Shown here piece after piece: positions 1,062 through 59,157 of a stretch of DNA of 64,000 nucleotides (the first letter of the stretch is position 1; every line of letters starts with the position of its first letter). Position numbers and translations under genes: made by a program. The notes below the pieces were generated by a model that worked only from the letters and a program-made list of their open reading frames with translations, ran no database searches and was not told where the DNA came from. The DNA comes from a virus: positions 29,973 to 93,972 of IMG/VR virus record IMGVR_UViG_3300034121_000527. The stretch is one strand, 5' to 3'.

Positions 1062-1445
1062 TTACATGCTAGAAAGCTTGAAAACTAATGATTCTATGTC
1101 AAAATCTTGCCCTCTAGCAGGGAAAATGTCTAGTGTGACATGTTTCCTAACTACAACAGAGGCCTCTCTACACTTAGGGCATCTGCATCCTGAACGATAC
1201 ATTTCAAGAGATCCATGATGCATTCTTGCTGTACCACGTCTCTCCTGTGGTGTCAAGCCACCCCACAAACCCCAATGCTCTTCAATACCATAATCAAGAC
1301 AGCTTTGCCACACTGGACAAGTATTGCATACTGCCTTACCCACTTTGTAATAGGCGTTGTGGTTGGTCTCCTCTAATGGAGGGAAGAATAAGTTTGGGTG
1401 TAGCCCCTTGCACGGAGCTTCCTCCATCCAAGGTTTAGAGTTCAT
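1062..1445 (-). CDS. whiB: WhiB-family Fe-S transcription factor with C-terminal HG..Y..GCRC..C domain
   Basis: W...APC...FFP...CNTCPVWQSC...GLWGGLTPQER: four Cys plus the G[LV]WGG turn. Confidence 0.92.
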   Translation of the reverse strand: MNSKPWMEEAPCKGLHPNLFFPPLEETNHNAYYKVGKAVCNTCPVWQSCLDYGIEEHWGLWGGLTPQERRGTARMHHGSLEMYRSGCRCPKCREASVVVRKHVTLDIFPARGQDFDIESLVFKLSSM

Positions 1446-3692: not shown

Positions 3693-4162
3693 TACTCTCT
3701 CCAGGTCTTCTCAGCAGCTTTTAGGGCTTGACTGTCTAATTCCTCAACCAAAACATCCCACTCTTTTATTATCTTCATGTTAGACCATTCAGGTCGTACC
3801 AAGTACGGGGATGCAATTAAAAGGGTAGCCATACCTAGTTTAAGTAGTTCTGCACAGGTTCTAGGATTGTTATCTACATACCACTCTGGTTTACCAAAAA
3901 TTGCACCAATACGGTTTATCTTTTCTGCCTGTAAAACAGGATCAGGTTCATCAAGCATTTCATAAAATGAAGGTTTTATTCCTTCTTTTTTAAGCCAATC
4001 TTCAAGTACTGGTCTGCTGTAGTCCTCATTAACTACTAGGCATATACGACCAAGTGACTGTTCATGCAACATACGCCAGATATACAACCCTTGTGAGTCT
4101 GGCTGGCGTAATGCTATGGAGTCTGCTGGGCGAGCCAATACAGAAAAGTTAAAAAGTATCAC
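3692..4162 (-). CDS. HAD-like fold hypothetical protein
   Basis: ILFNFSVLA (degenerate motif I) and WYVDNNP (motif IV-like). Confidence 0.45.
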   Translation of the reverse strand: MILFNFSVLARPADSIALRQPDSQGLYIWRMLHEQSLGRICLVVNEDYSRPVLEDWLKKEGIKPSFYEMLDEPDPVLQAEKINRIGAIFGKPEWYVDNNPRTCAELLKLGMATLLIASPYLVRPEWSNMKIIKEWDVLVEELDSQALKAAEKTWRE

Positions 4163-4617
4163 TAGTCATACATCTTTTTAGCAATACGATTCTTGTGAGT
4201 TACAAACTCTTGTGCTGGGCAGTAGTGGCAAAGGTACTGGCGGTTTTCTCTAGGAACACCAATCTTGCGACCAATGGTTTTGCTCTCATCTTCATAGTCA
4301 ATACACATGCCTGCTGGCCGGTTATGTCTACTAAAGCACTTAAGAGCTTCAACTTTTAGGTCATCTTTTAGTTCACGAACTTGCCATTCATTTTTAGCAA
4401 GTTCTTTATTGATCTGAGTTTCATCACCAAGTTTGTCCCAGGTGGCTTGATCACACCTAAGAATAAGGGATTTGTGGGCGTCTGGATCAGGGTTTGCGGC
4501 CTGACCAAGGTGCCTATTACACAGCTCTATAAGCTCCATGTCATACTGAACAGGACCTTCATAGTCCTTCATTCTGTACATGGTTCCACAGGTTTGACAC
4601 GTCAAAAGACGGGGCAT
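4162..4617 (-). CDS. Cys/His-rich putative metal-binding protein
   Basis: CQTC, C..H, C...HNRP...C, CHYC; SD AGGAG. Confidence 0.65.
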   Translation of the reverse strand: MPRLLTCQTCGTMYRMKDYEGPVQYDMELIELCNRHLGQAANPDPDAHKSLILRCDQATWDKLGDETQINKELAKNEWQVRELKDDLKVEALKCFSRHNRPAGMCIDYEDESKTIGRKIGVPRENRQYLCHYCPAQEFVTHKNRIAKKMYD

Positions 4618-27658: not shown

Positions 27659-27667
27659 TGATACGAT
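27659..27667 (+). promoter_or_regulatory. Extended -10 promoter for the dps island
   Basis: TG-A-TACGAT about 30 nt upstream of the dps ATG; SD AAGGAG. Confidence 0.5.
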
Positions 27668-27695
27668 TTGTGGTGGCAAATAACAAGGAGTTTTT

Positions 27696-28130
27696 ATGAA
27701 AGATTTAGCCAAGTCGCTCAAAGTGTTAGTGTCTGACGTAGTTACATTCTACTTTATGGCACATGGGTATCACTGGAATGTGGAGGGTCAGGACTTCAGC
27801 CAGTACCATTCATTGTTCTCGGAGATTTACGAAGATGCATACGGGTCAATTGACCCAATTGCTGAAAACATTCGTAAGTTGGATGATTATGCTCCCTTTA
27901 GTCTTCAAAAATTCCTTGATCTAAGAACTATTGATTTTAAAGATGTTCAACCTAATCCTAAGGCAATGGCCAAGTCATTGCTAACAGCAAATGATTCTTT
28001 GCTTGTATCTCTTAAAGATACCTTTGAAGCAGCTATGAAGGCCGACGAACAAGGTATTGCTAACTTCTTGTCAGAGCGTATTGACATGCACCAAAAATGG
28101 GCTTGGCAACTTCGAGCCTCAACCAAGTAA
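27696..28130 (+). CDS. dps: Dps ferritin-like DNA-protection protein
   Basis: HGYHWNVEG.DF...H.LF.EIY...DPIAENIR.L; H.KW.WQL.A C-terminus. Confidence 0.95.
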   Translation: MKDLAKSLKVLVSDVVTFYFMAHGYHWNVEGQDFSQYHSLFSEIYEDAYGSIDPIAENIRKLDDYAPFSLQKFLDLRTIDFKDVQPNPKAMAKSLLTANDSLLVSLKDTFEAAMKADEQGIANFLSERIDMHQKWAWQLRASTK

Positions 28131-28139
28131 GGAGCCAGC

Positions 28140-28439
28140 ATGGCAGAAAAAAAGAAAGCCCCAGCTAAAAAGACAGCCGCTTGGTCTCGTGCCGAGGGTA
28201 AAGACCCCAAGGGGGGTCTTAACGAAAAAGGACGCAAGTCCTATGAACGTGAGAACCCTGGTAGTGACCTTAAACCACCGGTAAAGAAAGAACAGGCCGC
28301 TAAGTCTGAGAAGTCAGCAGCGCGTCGTGATTCTTTCTGTGCGCGTATGGAAGGCATGAAGAAAAAGAACACTTCATCAAAAACAGCCAACGATCCTGAC
28401 TCCCGTATTAACAAGTCCTTGCGGGCTTGGGATTGCTAA
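28140..28439 (+). CDS. Basic protein, DUF6321-like
   Basis: EGKDPKGGLNEKGR.SY....GSDLKPPV...RRDSFCARM...SR...LRAW.C. Confidence 0.75.
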   Translation: MAEKKKAPAKKTAAWSRAEGKDPKGGLNEKGRKSYERENPGSDLKPPVKKEQAAKSEKSAARRDSFCARMEGMKKKNTSSKTANDPDSRINKSLRAWDC

Positions 28440-28440
28440 T

Positions 28441-28605
28441 ATGGCTGAAAAGAAAAAAGTATGGGAAACTAAAGACCCTACTAAGTCAGACAAAAAACTT
28501 ACCCCTGATCAAAAAGCTAAGGCAAAAGCTTCTGCCAAAGCGGCTGGTCGTCCTTACCCTAATCTTATTGATAATATGAAAGTATCCAAGAAGGGAGGTA
28601 AGTAG
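28441..28605 (+). CDS. 54-aa Lys/Ala-rich protein (not in ORF track)
   Basis: MAEKKKVWETKDPTKSDKKLTPDQKAKAKASAKAAGRPYPNLIDNMKVSKKGGK. Confidence 0.7.
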   Translation: MAEKKKVWETKDPTKSDKKLTPDQKAKAKASAKAAGRPYPNLIDNMKVSKKGGK

Positions 28606-28606
28606 T

Positions 28607-28720
28607 ATGTGCACAGCATGTGGATGTGATCTTAAGGACAAGAAGGACCCCGGCTATGGTAAGGGTCCTGCAAAGAAGAAAGCAGCACCAGCCAAGAAGG
28701 CAGCCCCTAAGAAAAAGTGA
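28607..28720 (+). CDS. 37-aa CxxCxC + histone-H1-like PAKK peptide (not in ORF track)
   Basis: MCTACGCDLKDKKDPGYGKGPAKKKAAPAKKAAPKKK; SD GGAGG. Confidence 0.7.
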   Translation: MCTACGCDLKDKKDPGYGKGPAKKKAAPAKKAAPKKK

Positions 28721-28754
28721 ACTCATTAATTTAGTAGTAGTTACTACTGAATAA

Positions 28755-28782
28755 CAAAAGGCCCCCGCAAGGGGGCCTTTTG
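28755..28782. terminator. Bidirectional intrinsic terminator
   Basis: CAAAAGGCCCCC-GCAA-GGGGGCCTTTTG between convergent genes. Confidence 0.92.
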
Positions 28783-28814: not shown

Positions 28815-29588
28815 TTACTCGTCCGATTGACTATCTACAACCAAATTCATAATCTTTTTCAAAAGATCTTTATTTACTCCAAAGCCAAGTTCAGTCCCGT
28901 CATTAAACAATAACAGGATTGATCCAATTTCAATATCTTCTTTGACCTTGGTTGAACCAGTCAAAGCGTCAATTGCTTCCTCCTTGTTCTTTACCAGGAA
29001 CCCAGCATTAGCTGCCATTCTTTTTACTGATGCAGCTGGCATAATTTCAAGAGTTTCTCTATCAAAGCTAGTTACATCTAAATCAAGAACCTTGTCCAGA
29101 TGATCTTCCATTTCAGATACCTCTGTCACTGACAGGGTTACTTCACTTTGTTCTGGTAGGTCAACCACAATAGGACACAACCCATTAGTAAGCTCTAATG
29201 ATTCAAGACCACGGTTAATTGTACTGTTGGCAAGATTAAGTGAACGCTCAGGATTGATTTCATCCCACATGATAAGTGCAATACCAGGTTTGCAGTCAAC
29301 CAAAAGGTCAATCACTGTAGAGTCTACATCTTCTACTAGGGTCACATTTAAAGCATGGTTGCTCAATGCTTTTGGAAGTGGTCGTCCTTCCGAAGAAGCA
29401 ACTACCTCATAGTCAATTTCATTATCAAGCATCCAGTCATAAACGCATTCCATTGATGGGGAAATTGTTTTTGAACCATACCAGGGGATCACAAAAGCGT
29501 GTTTTGCAATATCATTAAGTGAAGCGTTAATTACTTCTTTTGGAACACTAGCCCCGCCAAGAATTCCGTATGTATTTGTCTTTGCCAT
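28815..29588 (-). CDS. Hypothetical protein
   Basis: Start moved to MAKTN, with SD AGGAG. Confidence 0.65.
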   Translation of the reverse strand: MAKTNTYGILGGASVPKEVINASLNDIAKHAFVIPWYGSKTISPSMECVYDWMLDNEIDYEVVASSEGRPLPKALSNHALNVTLVEDVDSTVIDLLVDCKPGIALIMWDEINPERSLNLANSTINRGLESLELTNGLCPIVVDLPEQSEVTLSVTEVSEMEDHLDKVLDLDVTSFDRETLEIMPAASVKRMAANAGFLVKNKEEAIDALTGSTKVKEDIEIGSILLLFNDGTELGFGVNKDLLKKIMNLVVDSQSDE

Positions 29589-29595
29589 AACACTC

Positions 29596-29850
29596 CTATC
29601 GAAGACTCTTGCGGTGTGCAGCATCTCCACTAAGAGTCAAAAGGCGGAGCGCTGAATGCACTGTACCAGATAAAGCTGCTATTGCAGCACCGGCTACAAT
29701 AATATTATCAACATCAATAACTAGGCACGCTAAATAAGATAGGGCTATTGAAGCCAATATTTTGACCCATGGCATTGCCTCTTTTGGAAGCAGCGAGTCA
29801 ATAAGTTGTAGCACTTTATATACAGCTAATGAAGCTATTAATAAGTTCAT
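29596..29850 (-). CDS. Small membrane protein (holin-like)
   Basis: 2-3 hydrophobic helices, basic C-terminus. Confidence 0.55.
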   Translation of the reverse strand: MNLLIASLAVYKVLQLIDSLLPKEAMPWVKILASIALSYLACLVIDVDNIIVAGAAIAALSGTVHSALRLLTLSGDAAHRKSLR

Positions 29851-48472: not shown

Positions 48473-49600
48473 TCAGGAAATGGCGCCACCAAGCGTGTTG
48501 AGAATAACACGCGACTCGTGTGTGATCACACCAAAGCCCCAGATGGCGTACCAGGCAAGACCGTGCTCACGACCAAAGTCAATGACACCACCGTCACGCA
48601 ATTCAACCGGAAGGCTAATGGCATGACCAAAGGAGTTGTCACCAATCATGATGGCGTTGTAAGAATCGGCATTTTCCTGGAAACCAGCAGTACCAGAGTT
48701 AGCATCAAGGGTTGAACCCATGCCATAAAGAGGAGCAGTGGTTGCAGTAGCATCCAAGCCCTTCTTAACCTGGGTGGTTTCAATGAACACGACGTCGTAC
48801 AAGCGGCCAATTTCACCGAGCATGAAGTTGCCCGGAGCAGCGTACTTAGTGACTTCGATGAATTCCGGCCAGTCACGGAGCGAGCGGCTCTGCGACGGGT
48901 GGACGAAACACACGTAGGTGTCGCCCAAACGCGGGATGTTCTGACCAGCGAGGACTTCAACTGCGTCCTTGATGGATGCGGGGCTCAAGTAACCAGGCGA
49001 CGAAGCGGTACCAAGGGTACCTGCGTCGTACGGGCTGATAGCTCCACGGGTGGTAGCAGCCTTGCGACCGAACACAACGCTCGGAGGAACAGCCGATCCA
49101 CCACCGAACGGGATACCGTTCTTGTAGAGGGTGTTACGAGCCTGAATGTCCATGCTCTGTGCCATGTGACGACCAAGCAGACGCGAGGACGAAGCCATGA
49201 CGTCATCGAATGATGCATTGAGCAACAATTCGGTAACGGCAACGGCCTTACCCTGTTCTGACACGGTGATCTGAATCTGGCTAGCCGACAAAGCTGACGG
49301 TTCCATACGTGAACCTTCAGTCAAGTTAGCTCCAGCTGATTCATCAACCGTAAGGTTGTTGTAGCGCATGAAGTTGATGGTCAAACCTGGCATAACACCG
49401 AGTTCCGTCTTCTTCACAGCGAACTGTTCAAAGCGTAGAACCGGCATAGCCTGGAAAAGGATTTCCTTTGACCAAATTTGCTGGATTGCGGGAGATAGAG
49501 CCGAACTACCGTCAGTGTATCCTGTAACCTGGTTGCCTGTGCCTCCAGTATAGGTACCTGTTCCGGTAATTGCTCCACCTGCGGGTGCGGGTAATGCCAT
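48473..49600 (-). CDS. Major capsid protein (N4-gp56 family)
   Basis: IWSKEILFQA.P.LRFEQFA, LTEG, HP.Q..L, GEIG.LY.V.FIET, D.GRE..LAWY. Confidence 0.92.
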   Translation of the reverse strand: MALPAPAGGAITGTGTYTGGTGNQVTGYTDGSSALSPAIQQIWSKEILFQAMPVLRFEQFAVKKTELGVMPGLTINFMRYNNLTVDESAGANLTEGSRMEPSALSASQIQITVSEQGKAVAVTELLLNASFDDVMASSSRLLGRHMAQSMDIQARNTLYKNGIPFGGGSAVPPSVVFGRKAATTRGAISPYDAGTLGTASSPGYLSPASIKDAVEVLAGQNIPRLGDTYVCFVHPSQSRSLRDWPEFIEVTKYAAPGNFMLGEIGRLYDVVFIETTQVKKGLDATATTAPLYGMGSTLDANSGTAGFQENADSYNAIMIGDNSFGHAISLPVELRDGGVIDFGREHGLAWYAIWGFGVITHESRVILNTLGGAIS

Positions 49601-49639
49601 TTTAATATCCTCCGATGGATAGGTTGTTGGGTTTAATTA

Positions 49640-50410
49640 TTAGTAGCGGCCTCTAGGAGCCCGCGTTGCTGACATGAGTCTTTCACGCATTTTTACGTAT
49701 TGATCCATCGGCATATTGCGGATATCCTCCGCGCTGACCGTTTGGTAGTCCGTTTGGTTGTCCAGTGGTCCAGAGGGGGGCGCCGTAGTGGTGGTCCCTT
49801 TCAAACGAGGGGGACTCGCTTGCTGGATTGATTCAATTATAGCAGTACTTCGATCACGAAGTACTGTAATGCTATGTTCAATCTCTTCTTCACTATTACC
49901 TGCTACAAGATCTCGTAGCTCAGGAATAATCGTGTCGGTCTCAGCCTGAATGCGGCGTTGACGATACGACTCTAGTTGCTGGAGGTAACGTTCTTTTTCA
50001 AGCATTGCATCGGTGGCTTGGCGTTGCTTTTCCAGTTCGGAAAACTTCTGGCCCCACTCTTGCTCAACCTGGTTAATACGTTGATTGAATTCATCTTCCC
50101 GCTTTGAGAGAAGATCTTTTGCAGAAAGCTCTTCCATCTCACGCTGACGAGTAAGCTCGGCTTCCTTCTTAGCGCGGTCTGATGCTTCCTTAATGGCTTT
50201 CTCACGGTCACTGCTAAGCACTGACAGTTGTTCTTCCATTGACTTGACTCTATGATCGGCATCTTCAAGACGCTTGTACATCTTATCCTTCTCCTGCTGA
50301 CGGACTTTTTGAATGTCCTCTTCAGAGAAATACTTTTCTTCCTGCACCTTTGGAGCCGGGTTTTCTGCCGGATCTACGGGTACCTGAATACCATCTTCAA
50401 ATTTTGACAT
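49640..50410 (-). CDS. Capsid scaffolding protein
   Basis: Charged coiled coil between portal and capsid; M.M.QY...R C-terminus. Confidence 0.8.
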   Translation of the reverse strand: MSKFEDGIQVPVDPAENPAPKVQEEKYFSEEDIQKVRQQEKDKMYKRLEDADHRVKSMEEQLSVLSSDREKAIKEASDRAKKEAELTRQREMEELSAKDLLSKREDEFNQRINQVEQEWGQKFSELEKQRQATDAMLEKERYLQQLESYRQRRIQAETDTIIPELRDLVAGNSEEEIEHSITVLRDRSTAIIESIQQASPPRLKGTTTTAPPSGPLDNQTDYQTVSAEDIRNMPMDQYVKMRERLMSATRAPRGRY

Positions 50411-50460
50411 AAGTTAACCTCTTTTAGTTGGGCTGTTAATAGCTGAGTTAAAACGACAAT

Positions 50461-52155
50461 TTATTCTTCATCAGGAACACGACGCTGGGATAACCTAGCT
50501 CCGTATGCCTTTGCAACGATATTGTTTACCATTCCTTCTACAGGACCACCCATAACTTGAGTACCCGGTAAGGGGCCCCCTTGTCCTTGTGGTGAACCTG
50601 CACTTGTTACATTACCATTTCCAGAGGGTACCGTGCTGGTACCATCTGGGCCGGGTAACAAGCCTGTTGCCATCATGACAGCCTGATTAATTTGGGCGCG
50701 TAACATGTCAAGCGCACCCTGGTCAATGGCGTCATCACGGAGTTCTTCAAATATCTCAGCAAGCTTTTCCCGTGGGAATTCCTCACCGAGCATGCGCATA
50801 GCGCCTTCTTTAGATTCAAGACCCATAGCCATTTTGGCTTGGGCTTCGTTAAGCTTAATAAGCACGTCAATTGGCAAGGGTTCTGGCCAGTGGACTTGAG
50901 TGCGGTAAGTTAAAGGGTCCATAGGATCAAGCTGTGTAAGTTGATCCATCTCAGGCTGCTCTGTAGTAGCAGGGTTGTATATGAGAGCTTCAGGAGTAAA
51001 TATTGCTGCTGTTCTAATGATCAACTCATTAATCTTTTCAAGTCCCTTAGTAAAGTGAATGCGCTTCATATTAAAGCGGTTCATTAAAGGCTGGTATTGG
51101 ATAGCTAGAGCTACACCAGAAGTGTTTGATACCGGTTGAAATTGTCCGAGAGCTGTTTCGGGTACACCTGTGAGTTCATGCATAGCTCTCTTAAGGAACG
51201 TAATGTACTCTAAAGCTCCAGCCATGTTTCCGCTTGACTCAAGGTTAAATACACTAGCTTCTTTAGGAAGACCTGCCCAAACTTTCTTAGGACCACGTTC
51301 CAGCTGACTTGCCTTAGCACCAGTAATGATTGTCACTGGAGCAGCATGGTAGTTAATGATGTCTGATACTTCAGTCATCTTTTCATTCAACTCACGGTTG
51401 AGAGGAATGATGTCCCATATATCAGCTTGTCCCCAAGGGGATGAGGATATAGTCATGTTAGGAATGTGAACAATTGGAATGTGCCCAATAGGGTTAGGGT
51501 ACTGGTCAACAAGTTCGTCATTAATGTACTGCTCAATTGAGTCATCAGTAAGTATTTCAGTAAATGTGTAAACCTGACGAGTACCTTCAGGGCTAGTGCC
51601 CCAGAAACGATACTTCAGTTTAAATCGCAACAAACGGTCACGGTCATGAGGGTGATACTCAGGAAAGCAGTGTGCTGGGTTCAAAGCAATAACACGAATA
51701 CGACCTTCATTTGTTACCCCAATTGGGTCAACATACGGGTCTTCATAAGCTACTTTTACAAAACAGTCACCAGTTACTCCTGCGAGCTGCCCCATTTCCC
51801 AAAGAACATTATGTTTTGAGTTATCTTGTTCCCATACACGGTGTAGCAATTGGGGGATAATTGCACCGTTCTGTTCGGGAACTTTCCATTGAACACCTTT
51901 ACCAAAACAGAAGTTAGTAATGTAATCTGCCAAAGTACGTGTGTAGTTAAGGGTGATGTTTTGTTCACCCTGTTCACGTCTGTATGACCAGTGGTGACCA
52001 AGATACCAGGCCCAGCAAGCACTATAACGGTTAAGACGTGGACCATGAACTTCAAACTCTTCGTCTGCAAGTTCTACTAGGCCAAGAGGAGAAATAGCAA
52101 CAGTTAGGTCACTAGAGGAAGCTCTATAACTTGGTGACCAAAAATCAATCGGCAT
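50461..52155 (-). CDS. Portal protein (SPP1-like)
   Basis: NY....D....F.FGKG, GVTGD.F, NPIG.IPIVH.PN, SGVAL...Y.P. Confidence 0.9.
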   Translation of the reverse strand: MPIDFWSPSYRASSSDLTVAISPLGLVELADEEFEVHGPRLNRYSACWAWYLGHHWSYRREQGEQNITLNYTRTLADYITNFCFGKGVQWKVPEQNGAIIPQLLHRVWEQDNSKHNVLWEMGQLAGVTGDCFVKVAYEDPYVDPIGVTNEGRIRVIALNPAHCFPEYHPHDRDRLLRFKLKYRFWGTSPEGTRQVYTFTEILTDDSIEQYINDELVDQYPNPIGHIPIVHIPNMTISSSPWGQADIWDIIPLNRELNEKMTEVSDIINYHAAPVTIITGAKASQLERGPKKVWAGLPKEASVFNLESSGNMAGALEYITFLKRAMHELTGVPETALGQFQPVSNTSGVALAIQYQPLMNRFNMKRIHFTKGLEKINELIIRTAAIFTPEALIYNPATTEQPEMDQLTQLDPMDPLTYRTQVHWPEPLPIDVLIKLNEAQAKMAMGLESKEGAMRMLGEEFPREKLAEIFEELRDDAIDQGALDMLRAQINQAVMMATGLLPGPDGTSTVPSGNGNVTSAGSPQGQGGPLPGTQVMGGPVEGMVNNIVAKAYGARLSQRRVPDEE

Positions 52156-52504
52156 TAAAACCCCTGGTGTTAAAATCGGACAACATTAAGGCAACTATGT
52201 CAGCAGGTACATCAATGTATGTTATTGATTGTACCATTTTAAGTGGTATATGAGCAGGATTGCTGTAATATTCCGCTTTAGATTCTTTGTTTTCTTCGTT
52301 GGTATCAACAAGGAATGTTCCGGCAAGGGTTATATAATCGTCTAAGAAATCTGGAATAACCCAACCAATGCTTATTGGTCGTATTGGGTTAGGTTTGTAG
52401 GATTTGGGGTCCATCCAACCTGTTGGGCCATCAAACGCATCTAGCCAAGTAATAATAGCTAACTGTGGGGTTATTGGACTATCAACTTTCTTTTTTCTCT
52501 GCAT
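52145..52504 (-). CDS. Hypothetical phage protein
   Basis: I.WLDA...W...SIGW...YITLA...IP..MV.SI pattern. Confidence 0.6.
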   Translation of the reverse strand: MQRKKKVDSPITPQLAIITWLDAFDGPTGWMDPKSYKPNPIRPISIGWVIPDFLDDYITLAGTFLVDTNEENKESKAEYYSNPAHIPLKMVQSITYIDVPADIVALMLSDFNTRGFNAD

Positions 52505-53480
52505 TATAAAACTTCCCTCTAAAAAAGGCCGACCCGTTATGAAACGGCACTTGTTCATACCAAAACGCACCATCACCTGGTTCAAAGGTAACTATCCCAA
52601 TACCCTGCTGCCAGTCTTCTACAATGGTCATAGGTCTACCGTCCAGGTCGATTGATCCTTTGGTGGATGGGACGGTGCCGTCGCATCTTGCCAACGTACC
52701 AGGGGATGCGGCCATGATGGTCTTTGCACCATCCCAATCGTCACGGGACCGTTCAGCCCATTCACGCCGGTGGATGTGGCCATATAAGACTGAAGTCTTT
52801 TCTGTGTTGAGGTAGGCATGTGCTGTCGACCCGTTACTGCGTACTTTCGTGCCGTGTATGACACGGAGTCTTTCGTTGATCCAAAATTGTCCAGCTGGAT
52901 AGCCCGGTACATAATGTATCCCATAATCGTCGAAACGACAGAGATAAGGAATACTAAGCACAGGCCAGGACTCTGGCGTATTACCTTTACGAATCCCAAA
53001 AGCAGCTTTCGCGTTATCGAGTACAAAGTTCACCAATCTTTCTTCATGGTTTCCAGCTATCCATACAATCTTAGCGTTAGGAGCATAGGTCCGCAGCTGT
53101 GCTCCGAGGGTTGTAGCACGATCAATGGATGCTTGTGTAGTTAGTGCATAAGCACTACTAAGACGGTATTTACCAAATTCAGGAAAGTCCAAGTTGTCTC
53201 CAACTAACACAATCATGTCTGGATTTAGGGATTTTGTAATAGCTAAGGCCATCTCAATGGCGTGTTCATCATGAGTGGCTTCTAATTCGCCATTGCGGGC
53301 ACGGAAATACCCAATTTGCATATCTGGAAGGATTACGCAGGTTTGGTAACCTGGAGCGTTTGATGAGGGCTTAACTTTAATTGTTGGCATTTTTACTGAA
53401 GGACCAGGTTGTACTAATGGCCATTCAGGTTTGTTTAAAGAGTTAGTTGACAAAGCAGATACCAGATTACTCACAGCCAC
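52482..53480 (-). CDS. Calcineurin-like metallophosphoesterase
   Basis: PDMQ, GDNLD, GNHE, HG, GHIHR. Confidence 0.88.
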   Translation of the reverse strand: MAVSNLVSALSTNSLNKPEWPLVQPGPSVKMPTIKVKPSSNAPGYQTCVILPDMQIGYFRARNGELEATHDEHAIEMALAITKSLNPDMIVLVGDNLDFPEFGKYRLSSAYALTTQASIDRATTLGAQLRTYAPNAKIVWIAGNHEERLVNFVLDNAKAAFGIRKGNTPESWPVLSIPYLCRFDDYGIHYVPGYPAGQFWINERLRVIHGTKVRSNGSTAHAYLNTEKTSVLYGHIHRREWAERSRDDWDGAKTIMAASPGTLARCDGTVPSTKGSIDLDGRPMTIVEDWQQGIGIVTFEPGDGAFWYEQVPFHNGSAFFRGKFYNAEKKES

Positions 53481-53742
53481 ACCGCCCGTTCATATGACGG
53501 GAGATAGTGCTAGAACTTACTGGATACCCATTTTTTGTAAGCACTTCAGATAACCAGGAACAGGAGTAAGTCTTTGCTCTACCGTTCCCGGTATCTACTT
53601 TGATTTCTTCTTCAGCTTTATTTACTGCAGCATGCTCATCTGGAGTCATACTTTCTTTTATGCGAGTGAACGAGCACTTTTGACGAAGTGCATTCGCTTG
53701 TCGCTCCGTTAAGTCTGCAATCAGACTTGAGGAATCGGACAT
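53467..53742 (-). CDS. Small protein with C...H.C.C putative metal site
   Basis: L...GY.VS..TI.RH..G.C.C; SD AAGGAG. Confidence 0.6.
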   Translation of the reverse strand: MSDSSSLIADLTERQANALRQKCSFTRIKESMTPDEHAAVNKAEEEIKVDTGNGRAKTYSCSWLSEVLTKNGYPVSSSTISRHMNGRCGCE

Positions 53743-53783
53743 GTGATACTCCTTGTGTTACCCCACTGGAATACCAGCAGTTG

Positions 53784-53945
53784 TTATGCGGCTGTTTTGC
53801 CTTCTTTAGTATACACATTATTGCAGGAGTTTGACAAGTGTGTTACTGATTGTATTAATGAATACAATTCTTGTTCTTCTTCTGCTCCTCTAGCGACAAC
53901 TCGCTGAAGGTACTTTGAAAGTAAGTCTAGTTGATGAGGGGTCAT
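53784..53945 (-). CDS. 53-aa hypothetical protein (not in ORF track)
   Basis: MTPHQLDLLSKYLQRVVARGAEEEQELYSLI...; SD TAAGGAG. Confidence 0.55.
   Translation of the reverse strand: MTPHQLDLLSKYLQRVVARGAEEEQELYSLIQSVTHLSNSCNNVYTKEGKTAA
53808..53837 (-). promoter_or_regulatory. Sigma70/SigA-like promoter
   Basis: TTGTCA-N18-TATACT upstream of the 91-aa/phosphoesterase genes. Confidence 0.5.
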
Positions 53946-53984
53946 TAATGCTCCTTAAGTACGGAGCATCTACTCTACCAGATC

Positions 53985-54386
53985 TCAGCCAGAAACAACA
54001 GTCGGGTTTGGCAGATTCATACGGCCACCCGTGTTATATGAGTATTCAAACTGCGGCATAGAATCGCCGGCCATGCTACCCTGAACAAACTCCTGAAGGT
54101 GCTGAGGAGCTTCAATCCAGGAAGCTGAGCCAACGTGAGCACGCTCACGCATGGTCTCTTCGGGGTACTTGAAGAACATCTCAGGGTTGGTGTGGTTTTC
54201 ACGACCAGGAGCCGGAGCGGTGTCTTCATATGCACCTACACTGAAGTCATACGGAACGTCAGTGTCAGTTGCAATACCTTCTTCAAAGCGCAGTGGTCCG
54301 CGGTTGCCAGGAATGCTTGCAGCCATTGAACGCTCAAACATGGGGGTTCCTTTTTCTGGGAACATGGGGGTGGGGCCTACAGCCAT
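53985..54386 (-). CDS. Hypothetical protein next to terminase
   Basis: SD AGGAGG; RGPLRFEEGIATDTDVP; capsid-like codon usage. Confidence 0.7.
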   Translation of the reverse strand: MAVGPTPMFPEKGTPMFERSMAASIPGNRGPLRFEEGIATDTDVPYDFSVGAYEDTAPAPGRENHTNPEMFFKYPEETMRERAHVGSASWIEAPQHLQEFVQGSMAGDSMPQFEYSYNTGGRMNLPNPTVVSG

Positions 54387-54444
54387 AGTTTTCCTCCTAG
54401 TGGAATGGAAGTTTGTATATTTAGATTACCACGTTTTAGCATGA

Positions 54445-56004
54445 TTATCTGAAGAATGGGTTATCAGACACACTAACCATTGGCATTGTGTCTAATACTG
54501 ACATAGCACAGGCTATTGCCAGGCTGTCTGGGAAGTCATCAAAAGCTCCCTTTTCTTCAGGTGCAGCGGCCAGCATGTACGGGCCTCTGTAAACCTTTTC
54601 AAGGTCAGACATTTGTTGGTTAAACCGCTTCCAACTTCGTGTACGTCGTGCTTTAGAATGCCCAGGTATAACCAGTTGATCCCGCTGAATTAACTCAGTT
54701 AAATGCACCCAACGATCATTTTGGGTTTTAGCATCAGAAGTAACAGCTACTACATCAATCTTTGGCATAAGGATTTGTAAGCGTTCTGCAACTGCTCCAC
54801 CAACACCCTGGGAGTCAACACCAATACGGTATACATTATAGTTTCTTAGGAAATCAATAATTTCAAAATATTGAGATTCCCATTCTTCATTGTTGATCTC
54901 TAGCCAATTAAGAATTCTGTGTTCATAGAAACCAAACCCATCAGGACGATCCCAGTCAACCCAACATACTGTAACTACGGTTGAGTCATTTGAACGGGCT
55001 ACGTCAATACCTACGACTACTGGGGTACGCCACCACTGTTTAACAAGCCCCATTGAAGTGTCATACATCCGAGAAAGACGGTCATCACTGACAAACATAC
55101 CTTTTTCAAGAACCCACTTGTTGCAGTAGGACATCTGGAATTCGTCGGAATCTTCTCCGATTCTTACCTTCTCTTTACCTATAAACTTAGCATAGTTCTC
55201 GTTATATTTTGCAGCAGTTCTCCAGTCGTACTCAAAATGGCACTGCCTATGGTTACGTTTACTGTTTACATCTCTGCGTTTATTAAATTGAATCATTTTA
55301 TAAAAGTATGACTTGTTGCGAGTAGCTGTGCCAGTTAGTGCAATAGACCCGTTATTGAACGCCAACATTGGTTTGATGGACTTTGCAATCATGTACTCAT
55401 CAGCTTCTTGAGCTTCGTCAATAAGTACAAAGTGGTAGGTCTTAGATTCAATCTTTGCCTTAGGGTTACAGGTCTGCATACGGCAAAGGGAACCAGAGTG
55501 CTTAAGACTGATGATTCTGCCTTTACCTCGTGAACCGCCCGACGTAGCTTTATCGTCAATTTCTGGGTCAAGAAGGAAGTCCATAGCGTGTTCACTAGTT
55601 AGTTTGTTGACAATTCGGCTAAACACGGTGTCGGCCTGATCTTCAACCGGGGCAAAAACACCACACCAAAACCCCTTTTCAAACTTACCCAACCAGGTTG
55701 GATAAACCTTTGAAAGCTTAGGGAGGATGACCATCATTGATGCTAAGACATTAGACAAAACTTCTGACTTACCAGACTGTCGAGTAGCCACCAATGTCAG
55801 TTCTTCACCATCACCAATAACTATTGACTCAATTACTCGGTAAGCAATAGGCACCTGGTATGGGAAGAAGGTTACATTACAGAACTCCTCCGTAAAAAGG
55901 ATAAGCTTTAAAACAAGCTGGTCAATGAATTCTTGTGATGTTTCGTCTAGTTCAACTGCCTGAATATCCTCAGGCGAAGACCCATCTTCTAGTAGTTCCT
56001 GCAT
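54445..56004 (-). CDS. Terminase large subunit
   Basis: PYQ, TRQSGKS (Walker A), LIDEAQ (Walker B), LTGT, GIDVAR..DSTV, DDFPDSLA. Confidence 0.95.
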   Translation of the reverse strand: MQELLEDGSSPEDIQAVELDETSQEFIDQLVLKLILFTEEFCNVTFFPYQVPIAYRVIESIVIGDGEELTLVATRQSGKSEVLSNVLASMMVILPKLSKVYPTWLGKFEKGFWCGVFAPVEDQADTVFSRIVNKLTSEHAMDFLLDPEIDDKATSGGSRGKGRIISLKHSGSLCRMQTCNPKAKIESKTYHFVLIDEAQEADEYMIAKSIKPMLAFNNGSIALTGTATRNKSYFYKMIQFNKRRDVNSKRNHRQCHFEYDWRTAAKYNENYAKFIGKEKVRIGEDSDEFQMSYCNKWVLEKGMFVSDDRLSRMYDTSMGLVKQWWRTPVVVGIDVARSNDSTVVTVCWVDWDRPDGFGFYEHRILNWLEINNEEWESQYFEIIDFLRNYNVYRIGVDSQGVGGAVAERLQILMPKIDVVAVTSDAKTQNDRWVHLTELIQRDQLVIPGHSKARRTRSWKRFNQQMSDLEKVYRGPYMLAAAPEEKGAFDDFPDSLAIACAMSVLDTMPMVSVSDNPFFR

Positions 56005-57648: not shown

Positions 57649-59157
57649 TTATTTGTTGTTTTCTAATTCTTTCACACGGGCAGTCAGTTCTTGTACTGCA
57701 CCAACAAGAACAGCAACTAATTTTGAGTAGTCAACTTGTTGTGGCTTGATGTTTCCTTCTTCGTCTATTGCATCTTTTTGTCCAGCAACAGCGTAAGGAA
57801 TCACTTCTGCAAGTTCATGTGCAAAAAAGCCATGTTCGGTTACTGTTGGATTTGAAATAAAATTATATGTTTTTGGTGCAAGCATTTCAATTATTTCTAG
57901 CGCATCAACAAGAGGTATAACATTTTCTTTCAGTCGATAGTCAGAAGTTGTGTTATATGTGACACCTGAACCATTATCATATATTGATCCAATAACAGTA
58001 CCTGAACGATGAAATGTTGCGTGATAAGTATTAGTAGGCCCATTAGTAGTCAGTGGAGTATTGGCAGTAGTAATCACTCCAGTTCTAACTATGCCATTAC
58101 TTGACAAAGTAGAGTAACTACCAAATGCTCCACCGCCAGCAATATCGAGTGAACCTGCCGCAAAACCACCAGAACCATCACGAGCAACAATTGCTGATGC
58201 CGTATTAGCTGATGTAGCAGTAGTGGCACTATTAGAAACTTTTCCTGTTGTTGAAATAGTTGCCAATTTTGTATCAACAATTCCAGCAGAAGCACTGATA
58301 TCAGCGTTAACAATTGTTGCATCAAGAATATTTGATGAGGTTATTGTTCCAGCTGCAATATCTGTTCCAGTAATGGTTGCATCAACAATGTTGGCTGAAG
58401 CAATAGTTATTGCTGTTGGTAAAGCACCAGTAGCTAACTTAGACAATGCAATAGCAGCTGAAGCGTTAATATCAGCATTTACAATTGTTCCATCAACAAT
58501 ATTGGCTGATGCTACAGTGATGGTAGTTGGCAAAGCACCAGTTCCTAATTTAGTCAATGCAATAGCAGCTGAAGCGTTAATTTCAGCATTAAGAATTGTG
58601 CCATCAGCAATTTTAATTGCAGTAATTGCACCATCGGCAATCTTAGCTGTAGTAACATTACTATCGGCAATTTTAGCGGTAGTAACATTAATATCAGCAA
58701 TCTTACTAGTCGTTACTGCACTAGTTGCAATAGATGCTTCAACTACTTGGCCCCACTTAACTCCGTAGTTTGTATCAGTAGAGTCAGCAACTAGCACAAA
58801 ATTGTTTGTGCCAGAAACTGGTAGTGCAACAGGAGAACTAGCACCTCCACCGACTACTACTTGACCTTTTGCACCTACAATAGCTCGCGCCATCATTATA
58901 GCTGTGTCAACATCTAGGGTAACAACGCCCCCAGTAGAAGTTGCTCCAGCAACAGTATTTAATTTAAGACCAGTACCAGCTGTAATTTGAGTAATAGTAC
59001 CTGAACCCCAGTATGGAAGAGCACTCCATGTGGTTGTACCATCGCCAACTTTGTACTGTTTAGTGGTAGTATTAACGCCTACTTCACCAGCATCTAGTAC
59101 TAGAGAACCCGGCCAGTCAGCAGTAGCTCCACGCCTTAATTGAATTTTAACAGCCAT
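57649..59157 (-). CDS. Tail fibre/spike with Mtd-like N-terminus and S74 intramolecular chaperone
   Basis: IQLRRG...W...L..GE.G.......KVGDG.T.W..LPY; TTAKIAD repeats; TSDYRLKENV...GF.AHE...VDYSKL. Confidence 0.88.
   Translation of the reverse strand: MAVKIQLRRGATADWPGSLVLDAGEVGVNTTTKQYKVGDGTTTWSALPYWGSGTITQITAGTGLKLNTVAGATSTGGVVTLDVDTAIMMARAIVGAKGQVVVGGGASSPVALPVSGTNNFVLVADSTDTNYGVKWGQVVEASIATSAVTTSKIADINVTTAKIADSNVTTAKIADGAITAIKIADGTILNAEINASAAIALTKLGTGALPTTITVASANIVDGTIVNADINASAAIALSKLATGALPTAITIASANIVDATITGTDIAAGTITSSNILDATIVNADISASAGIVDTKLATISTTGKVSNSATTATSANTASAIVARDGSGGFAAGSLDIAGGGAFGSYSTLSSNGIVRTGVITTANTPLTTNGPTNTYHATFHRSGTVIGSIYDNGSGVTYNTTSDYRLKENVIPLVDALEIIEMLAPKTYNFISNPTVTEHGFFAHELAEVIPYAVAGQKDAIDEEGNIKPQQVDYSKLVAVLVGAVQELTARVKELENNK
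58381..58720. repeat. Degenerate coding tandem repeats (~40-aa duplication and 10-aa VTTAKIAD units)
   Basis: NA.INASAAIAL.KL.TGALPT.IT.ASANIVD x2; VTT.KIAD x3-4. Confidence 0.8.

Follow-up and report, generated by a model that had tools for sequence, protein, structure and literature searches.

A plus-strand dps unit with three small basic proteins as candidate free-standing capsid cargo of a phage

Positions 27659-28782 of the DNA analysed here hold a gene for a Dps-type ferritin followed by genes for three small, very basic proteins. The stretch, called the window below, comprises 64,000 nucleotides and is part of the complete 93,972-bp virus record IMGVR_UViG_3300034121_000527. The question raised by this locus is where the products of such a set act: in the infected cell, in a defined complex of Dps with its neighbours, or in the capsid together with the packaged DNA. 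Comparison with other phages shows that three of the four genes are free-standing copies of modules that are fused elsewhere to capsid-interior or virion proteins, and the cassette is tentatively read here as a group of free-standing capsid-cargo modules, a reading to which we give slightly less than an even chance. The fusion evidence points phage Dps to the capsid interior, in contrast to its usual reading as a helper of host metabolism. The cassette would then be the unfused form of a viral counterpart of the ferritin cargo of encapsulins.

The Dps protein and its head-protein relatives

The first gene, dps (27696-28130, plus strand), encodes a protein of 144 amino acids (aa) that matches PF00210 (59.1 bits against a cut-off of 24.5; 6e-16) and phrog_3636 (3e-26). 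A search of solved structures with this protein returned 31 Dps or NAP chains at E<=1e-3, the best being 8ff9 (4.5e-19). Residues 4-141 of the query align to residues 15-152 of a 156-residue structure, which covers the core only. The Lys-rich N- or C-terminal tail that marks the DNA-binding Dps subclass (E. coli Dps, M. smegmatis Dps1) is missing and the protein is acidic, with an isoelectric point (pI) of 5.3, in agreement with the initial annotation, which had been made from the letters of the DNA and described a Dps without a basic tail. It had also described the ferroxidase residues as intact. Residues H26, W27, H38, D53 and E57 do not vary among 50 distinct relatives, and H26, H38, D53 and E57 align with ferroxidase ligands of 8ff9 and 3iq1, in line with that description. 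The position H38+4, at which a further acidic ligand is expected (Asp47 in Listeria numbering), is Ser42 in the window protein, with Glu43 adjoining. The acid after the second His lies at +4 in 8 of the 50 relatives and at +5 in the other 42, and we read the site as intact and slightly shifted.

The product is thus predicted to be a tail-less, acidic Dps-type mini-ferritin of the phage-specific clade phrog_3636. It shares with Listeria innocua Dps and Helicobacter pylori NAP a four-helix domain of the same length, the His-His-Asp-Glu ligands and the lack of a Lys-rich tail. Unlike those proteins, it belongs to a phage clade found for the most part as domains within head proteins, its acidic ligand has moved from His+4 to +5, and its cage is a predicted one.

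The architecture of the relatives carries most of the argument. An exhaustive profile-free search gave 3808 Dps relatives, and the best 150 (39-62% identity) were examined. More than two thirds of these (101/150) are longer than 260 aa, and the Dps domain was present in all 79 long relatives that were scanned. The head-maturation protease phrog_80 was matched by 25 of the 79 and a portal or virion-structural region by 8, while a few matched minor head or head-morphogenesis proteins. In two loci (L234 and L237) the protease gene itself, flanked by the genes for portal and major head protein, contains the Dps domain, which is N-terminal to the protease in one of them and C-terminal in the other. 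One such protein, P0203, combines HAD-like, ferritin and Peptidase_S78 (8e-43) domains.

The companions of dps in the window are also found in these polypeptides. In P0316 and P0330 the order is protease-DUF6321-Dps, and in P0230 the Dps domain is followed by the module of the 54-aa protein, phrog_34011. Profile hidden Markov models detected DUF6321 or the 54-aa module in 3 of the 150 Dps clusters, a link that is real and rare. In a quick tree of 151 Dps domains, built without branch support, free and embedded forms interleave with at least 13 switches (mean 25 and minimum 21 for shuffled labels); the window Dps lies beside free forms, and the protease-fused forms are slightly further off. Taken together, the phage-specific Dps clade appears to be mostly a module of head proteins. 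A literature search found no paper on Dps-protease fusions.

Two further arrangements were seen among the long relatives. The N-terminal domain of P0203 (L234:3820-5577), placed on a Dps-protease fusion, is HAD/polynucleotide-kinase-like, and P0198 (777 aa) contains two tandem Dps domains. Architectures of this kind suggest that head proteases carry a varied set of attached cargo domains.

The three small basic proteins

The second gene (28140-28439, plus strand, 99 aa) encodes a basic DUF6321 protein (pI ~10), as the initial annotation had supposed: residues 20-97 match PF19846 with 91.1 bits against a cut-off of 28.5 (7e-26). Its AlphaFold2 (AF2) model is a compact helical domain with a predicted local distance difference test (pLDDT) score of 80. 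An ESM Atlas search returned only DUF6321 clusters, all of them (100%) viral, and the domain was found in 507 isolated phage genomes, mainly of cyanomyoviruses and pelagiphages. It is terminal in 98 of 104 proteins of at least 300 aa. A Foldseek comparison of the model with the PDB gave nothing, the VIA wide fold search reached at best Z 4.5 with generic helical hairpins, and the BFVD fold search returned DUF6321 family members only. No paper on DUF6321 was found in a literature search.

The third gene (28441-28605, plus strand, 54 aa) belongs to phrog_34011 (2.2e-22; residues 1-52 against profile positions 1-52 of 55). Its family alignment shows an invariant GRPYPNLIDN loop, and in the AF2 model (pLDDT 83) the protein folds as helix-loop-helix, the loop containing the invariant GRPYPN. 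Nothing in the PDB matched this model at E<=0.001; the top rows, at E>1, were histone-fold fragments and were not used. The domain LPD22 (PF18834) was considered for this protein and rejected, as its match was below threshold (14.3 bits against a cut-off of 28.6, E 0.051). For neither the DUF6321 nor the 54-aa protein did the fold searches recognise a DNA-binding or other known fold.

The fourth gene (28607-28720, plus strand) encodes a 37-aa peptide that starts with MCTACGC and ends in a PAKK-type tail. Its family signature consists of MCxxCGCG, then KKDPG[YF]GKGP, then a Lys/Ala/Pro tail, and the signature together with a GGGAGG ribosome-binding site is conserved in 28 distinct variants. The tail is of low complexity and varies between relatives, and its likeness to H1/HupB is compositional. 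The peptide has no Pfam or PHROG match, and this Cys/Lys peptide defines a new conserved family without a database model, one that is missed by gene callers. No longer proteins with this module were found using a 44-aa ortholog as query, which is weak evidence. In a few relatives (L138, L141, L142; ~4153-4257 and 545-637) longer variants of the peptide contain an extra EF-hand-like loop, DVDKDGKLEGSDF, before the terminal Lys run.

Fusions also place the DUF6321 and 54-aa modules in proteins of the virion or of the injected type. The 54-aa module stands directly after DUF6321, in the order of the window genes, in two-module proteins of 135-174 aa, and the two modules (DUF6321 at 3-81, the 54-aa module at 102-150) stand at the N-terminal end of nine or more proteins with lengths of 500-1600 aa. 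These long proteins carry PBECR5 (a nuclease-type domain, above the Pfam cut-off), DUF4214 or a cell-wall hydrolase, and some have a sub-threshold match to ART-PolyVal. For polyvalent proteins of such architecture, Iyer et al. (2017, PMC5512222) predicted that they are packaged along with the DNA and enter the host by injection with it. The window modules resemble these in their occurrence within long multi-domain phage proteins; they differ in being separate single-domain proteins without an enzymatic domain, and the polyvalent hallmark of at least two disparate domains is found in their homologs alone. Neither DUF6321 nor phrog_34011 could be confirmed as a domain named in that paper.

A further case is ORF29 (517 aa) of cyanophage S-SCSM1, which has DUF6321 at its end, lies between a tail-fibre gene and the large terminase gene, and has the GenBank product name 'virion protein'. 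The S-SCSM1 paper reports a virion proteome, determined by mass spectrometry (MS), of 45 proteins, 13 of them of unknown function. BLAST matches of ORF29 are hypothetical proteins only, and we infer from the GenBank label that the name reflects detection by MS. Both DUF6321 and phrog_34011 thus look like modules of a docking type that sit at the ends of virion or polyvalent-type proteins. For DUF6321, which occurs in the genomes of more than 500 isolated cyanophages and pelagiphages, and for its partner phrog_34011, this would be a first functional handle. Because they are fused there in other phages, Dps and two of the small proteins can be tied to the capsid interior or to injected proteins.

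Possible capsid cargo, variable island content and other readings

If the cassette does encode capsid cargo, its four products would be internal proteins, enclosed in the head together with the DNA. The Dps cage would oxidise and store Fe(II) and consume peroxide, and the packaged DNA would be spared Fenton damage; the basic proteins would bind or dock on the DNA and may exit with it at ejection. A single four-protein complex would not be required, and the proteins could be interchangeable cargo. The head-protein fusions lend support to the suggestion of the initial annotation that the products shield or accompany phage DNA, possibly in the capsid, separately from the obligate complex with which it had been combined and which is discussed below.

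Several observations weigh against capsid cargo. The window Dps is bare and free-standing: it lacks an extension of scaffold or protease type, and no targeting peptide can be recognised in it. The covalent link to a protease, scaffold or head protein that its relatives have is missing, and none of the genes in the window is similar to what the fusion proteins carry besides Dps. The island is outside the head module, on the opposite strand and under a candidate host-type promoter, which is a moron or auxiliary layout. About half of the sampled Dps loci of the clade are likewise free-standing and could not be placed in head modules, and fusion elsewhere does not show packaging in the window phage. 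Finally, the MS status of S-SCSM1 ORF29 is taken from a GenBank label, and no DNA-binding fold was recognised by fold searches in the small proteins.

Two known kinds of system help to place the proposal. Phage T4 internal proteins IPI-III are small basic proteins that are packaged with the DNA and injected. They are also dispensable and variable between relatives, like the window proteins, which are proposed to travel with the DNA; the window proteins differ from them in having no sequence relationship, no recognisable capsid-targeting sequence or protease site, and genes outside the head module. Dps-protease or Dps-scaffold fusions and encapsulins with ferritin-like cargo share with the proposal an iron-oxidising cage in an HK97-type shell, and the fusions belong to the same Dps clade. 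In contrast to both, the window Dps stands alone, is encoded outside the head module and lacks a covalent targeting part, and its loading is something we infer.

The content of the locus in other phages bears on all of the readings. For the Dps, searches of viral contigs gave 126 relatives, and for the 54-aa protein more than 526; neighbourhoods were counted in the best 80 Dps loci and, separately, in 80 loci found via the 54-aa gene. Among the Dps loci, a divergent rep-like gene was present in 63/80 and a convergent gene for a 271-aa protein in 71/80, while DUF6321 and the 37-aa gene were each present in 53/80 and the 54-aa gene in 35/80. The slot of the island is fixed, with a divergent replication-initiator-like gene on one side and the end of the late operon on the other, and its content is variable, usually starting with dps followed by changing families of small, very basic proteins. 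The 54-aa gene may be present or absent among relatives that are 97-100% identical, and it is missing from phages with a Dps 99-100% identical to that of the window (L001-L003, L005). Extra genes are often inserted after dps, between dps and DUF6321, and in distant relatives small genes lie upstream of dps. A scan for the 37-aa motif, independent of Dps, found 70 viral loci, 47 of them with Dps; it included copies in unrelated contexts, and complete islands from rep to the 271-aa gene without Dps were seen in L194, L195 and L223. The cassette is this phage's version of a conserved accessory island in a freshwater, WhiB-bearing phage lineage.

The island also hosts other small, very basic families, namely phrog_7595, phrog_6437, phrog_17747 and phrog_14910 (L040:4434-5560 and many Dps loci). 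The first of these has an R-x-SF-x-x-RH-like motif in common with DUF6321, and it shows a weak match (6e-6) to part of phrog_220, 'minor head protein and DNA pilot'. Inserts between dps and DUF6321 at L006:4442-5071 and L011:4439-4945 encode a 210-aa phrog_3704 protein, labelled ferredoxin in the moron/AMG (auxiliary metabolic gene) category, and a 169-aa protein that resembles S-adenosylmethionine methyltransferases, with matches below the Pfam cut-offs.

A reading that is compatible with either capsid cargo or an auxiliary island, and not exclusive of them, treats the DUF6321 and 54-aa proteins as a Dps-independent pair, a two-part docking or adaptor unit (for DNA, portal or capsid) that carries effector domains elsewhere and is encoded here as two separate proteins. 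We consider this quite possible, somewhat short of an even chance. Of the 80 loci found via the 54-aa gene, 51 have DUF6321, mostly adjacent to it, and only 7 have Dps, all of them of the window's lineage. The fusions in window order, both in the two-module proteins and in the long ones, and the nearly always terminal position of DUF6321 also favour a pair; the dispensability of the 54-aa gene in the nearest relatives speaks against it, as does the lack of any 54-aa homolog among isolated phages, those carrying DUF6321 included. Combined with capsid cargo, the pair leads to a wider proposal, namely that the lineage loads Dps and changeable basic proteins into the capsid as an anti-Fenton and DNA-coating kit, and that the DUF6321 and 54-aa dyad is a general docking tag (for DNA, portal or shell) that carries nuclease-type and other effector domains into virion and host in other aquatic phages. 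As a whole, this wider proposal is doubtful.

The island could instead be an intracellular auxiliary one, a set of morons in which Dps sequesters iron and blunts oxidative stress during replication, and in which the small basic proteins are unrelated accessories, for example nucleoid or host-takeover factors, gathered in the same insertion hot spot. This is possible, at a likelihood clearly below even. Its own candidate promoter and terminator, its opposite strand, its slot between replication and late modules, its highly variable content with other morons in the slot (the methyltransferase-like gene and phrog_3704, 'moron/AMG') and the bare 144-aa Dps domain all agree with it. Moron or accessory-island features are indeed present in the terminator, in the variable gene content of close relatives and in the insertion between conserved modules. 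Published readings of phage Dps and ferritin genes are of defence against reactive oxygen species (Benler 2021, PMC8008677; Kavagutti 2019, PMC6802176). Those genes, from gut 'Gratiaviridae' and other phages and from freshwater phages, respectively, concern reactive oxygen species and iron, and share with the window a Dps-family gene, an oxic sunlit habitat and a moron-like layout; as far as those sources go, the window Dps differs in its basic-protein companions and in a clade that fusions tie to the capsid interior. An auxiliary island does not account for the fact that members of the Dps clade are for the most part built into head proteins. It also leaves unexplained why DUF6321 and the 54-aa module keep turning up at the ends of virion or polyvalent-type proteins, and why both are occasionally fused to Dps and protease.

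It is improbable that the acidic, tail-less Dps dodecamer recruits the basic small proteins as DNA-binding tails in trans to form a defined shielding or condensing complex, the obligate multi-part system proposed by the initial annotation, because, against the charge complementarity (-5 per Dps subunit, +9 to +13 for the small proteins), the tight translational coupling, the 54-aa module directly after Dps in P0230, DUF6321 within the Dps polypeptide in two fusions, and the 37-aa gene accompanying Dps in 47/70 loci, the small genes vary around Dps, even where Dps is 99-100% identical, other genes often separate dps from DUF6321, Dps is missing from some complete islands and from hundreds of phages that have DUF6321 and the 54-aa module, and either module was found in only 3/150 Dps clusters. 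The annotation had itself named a lack of co-occurrence in other phages as a result that would speak against its proposal, and this is largely what was found: the genes are loosely associated in both directions, with DUF6321 and the 37-aa gene missing from about a third of the Dps loci, the 54-aa gene from more than half, and Dps from most of the 54-aa loci.

Architecture and genomic setting of the unit

Nearly all window genes are on the minus strand, and positions 27659-28782 form the window's sole plus-strand unit, with the elements that the initial annotation had listed. A codon-usage score was trained on long minus-strand genes and applied to plus-strand open reading frames (ORFs) of at least 60 aa; only dps and the DUF6321 gene scored positive and were unshadowed by a better minus-strand gene. 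All four ORFs were assessed by the ratio of non-synonymous to synonymous polymorphism (pN/pS) against relatives, which was 0.21 for dps, 0.12 for DUF6321, 0.26 for the 54-aa ORF and 0.17 for the 37-aa ORF. All four values correspond to purifying selection, and for this reason both unannotated small ORFs are genuine genes, as had been supposed.

A candidate extended -10 promoter, TGaTACGAT (27659-27667, plus strand), was read from the sequence 29 nt upstream of the dps start codon. The motif TGnTAnnnT is kept at the same distance from dps in closer relatives (L001-L012, L022-L031, L036) and occurs once in the window. There is no recognisable -35 and a sigma-70 consensus scan made no call, and the promoter of its own that had been ascribed to the unit is retained as a candidate. 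A Shine-Dalgarno sequence for dps, AAGGAG (27685-27690, plus strand), was also read from the sequence, and an AGGAG-type site is kept in relatives; the sites in the unit are AAGGAG, AGGAG and GGGAGG. The four genes are separated by gaps of 9, 1 and 1 nt, and the DUF6321 and 54-aa proteins share the MAEKKK start noted earlier. The bidirectional intrinsic terminator was likewise confirmed at 28755-28782 (both strands), with a 12-bp stem of which 8 pairs are GC, preceded by an A-run and, on the plus strand, followed by a T-run, and it is common to the plus-strand unit and the convergent late operon. All three small proteins have a pI of ~10. An Rfam search of the cassette gave nothing above threshold.

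The gene adjoining the end of the island is the convergent 271-aa gene (28815-29630, minus strand), the most constant neighbour of the island in the Dps loci, for which Pfam and PHROG searches gave no match. The head module of the window (48473-56004, minus strand) includes the large terminase (54445-56004), the portal (50461-52155) and the major head protein (48473-49600), all on the minus strand. A 256-aa gene flanked by the portal and capsid genes (49640-50410, minus strand) is a likely candidate for the protease or scaffold, and a 501-aa gene beyond the terminase (57649-59157, minus strand) matches tail-fibre families.

Two WhiB-family genes were found above the Pfam cut-off in the complete 94-kb record (57 and 63 bits), one in the window (1062-1445, minus strand) and another 2.9 kb before the window start. 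WhiB has served as a marker to assign freshwater phages to actinobacterial hosts (PMC6802176), and because of these two genes the host of the phage lineage is presumably actinobacterial.

A different arrangement upstream of dps was seen in GC-richer relatives (L011:3930-3990, L013:115-180, L017, L032, L041, L046, L051, L040, L047), which have a long, near-perfect hairpin between rep and dps, directly upstream of the dps ribosome-binding site. Between rep and dps of the window itself there is only a weak repeat, CCTCCACAA-N23-TTGTGGTGG (z -0.13). In the relatives, the stem is ~16-22 bp, with sequences that vary between relatives and some G-T pairs, and the loop is 5-8 nt and of TAnnnT type; an A-run precedes the hairpin and a T-run trails it. 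RNAalifold gave no consensus for these upstream hairpins, as their registers differ. Folded per sequence as single-stranded DNA, they reached z -4.2 to -7.2, and 0/200 shuffles folded equally well. The hairpin of the relatives could be a bidirectional terminator or insulator, or a regulated promoter.

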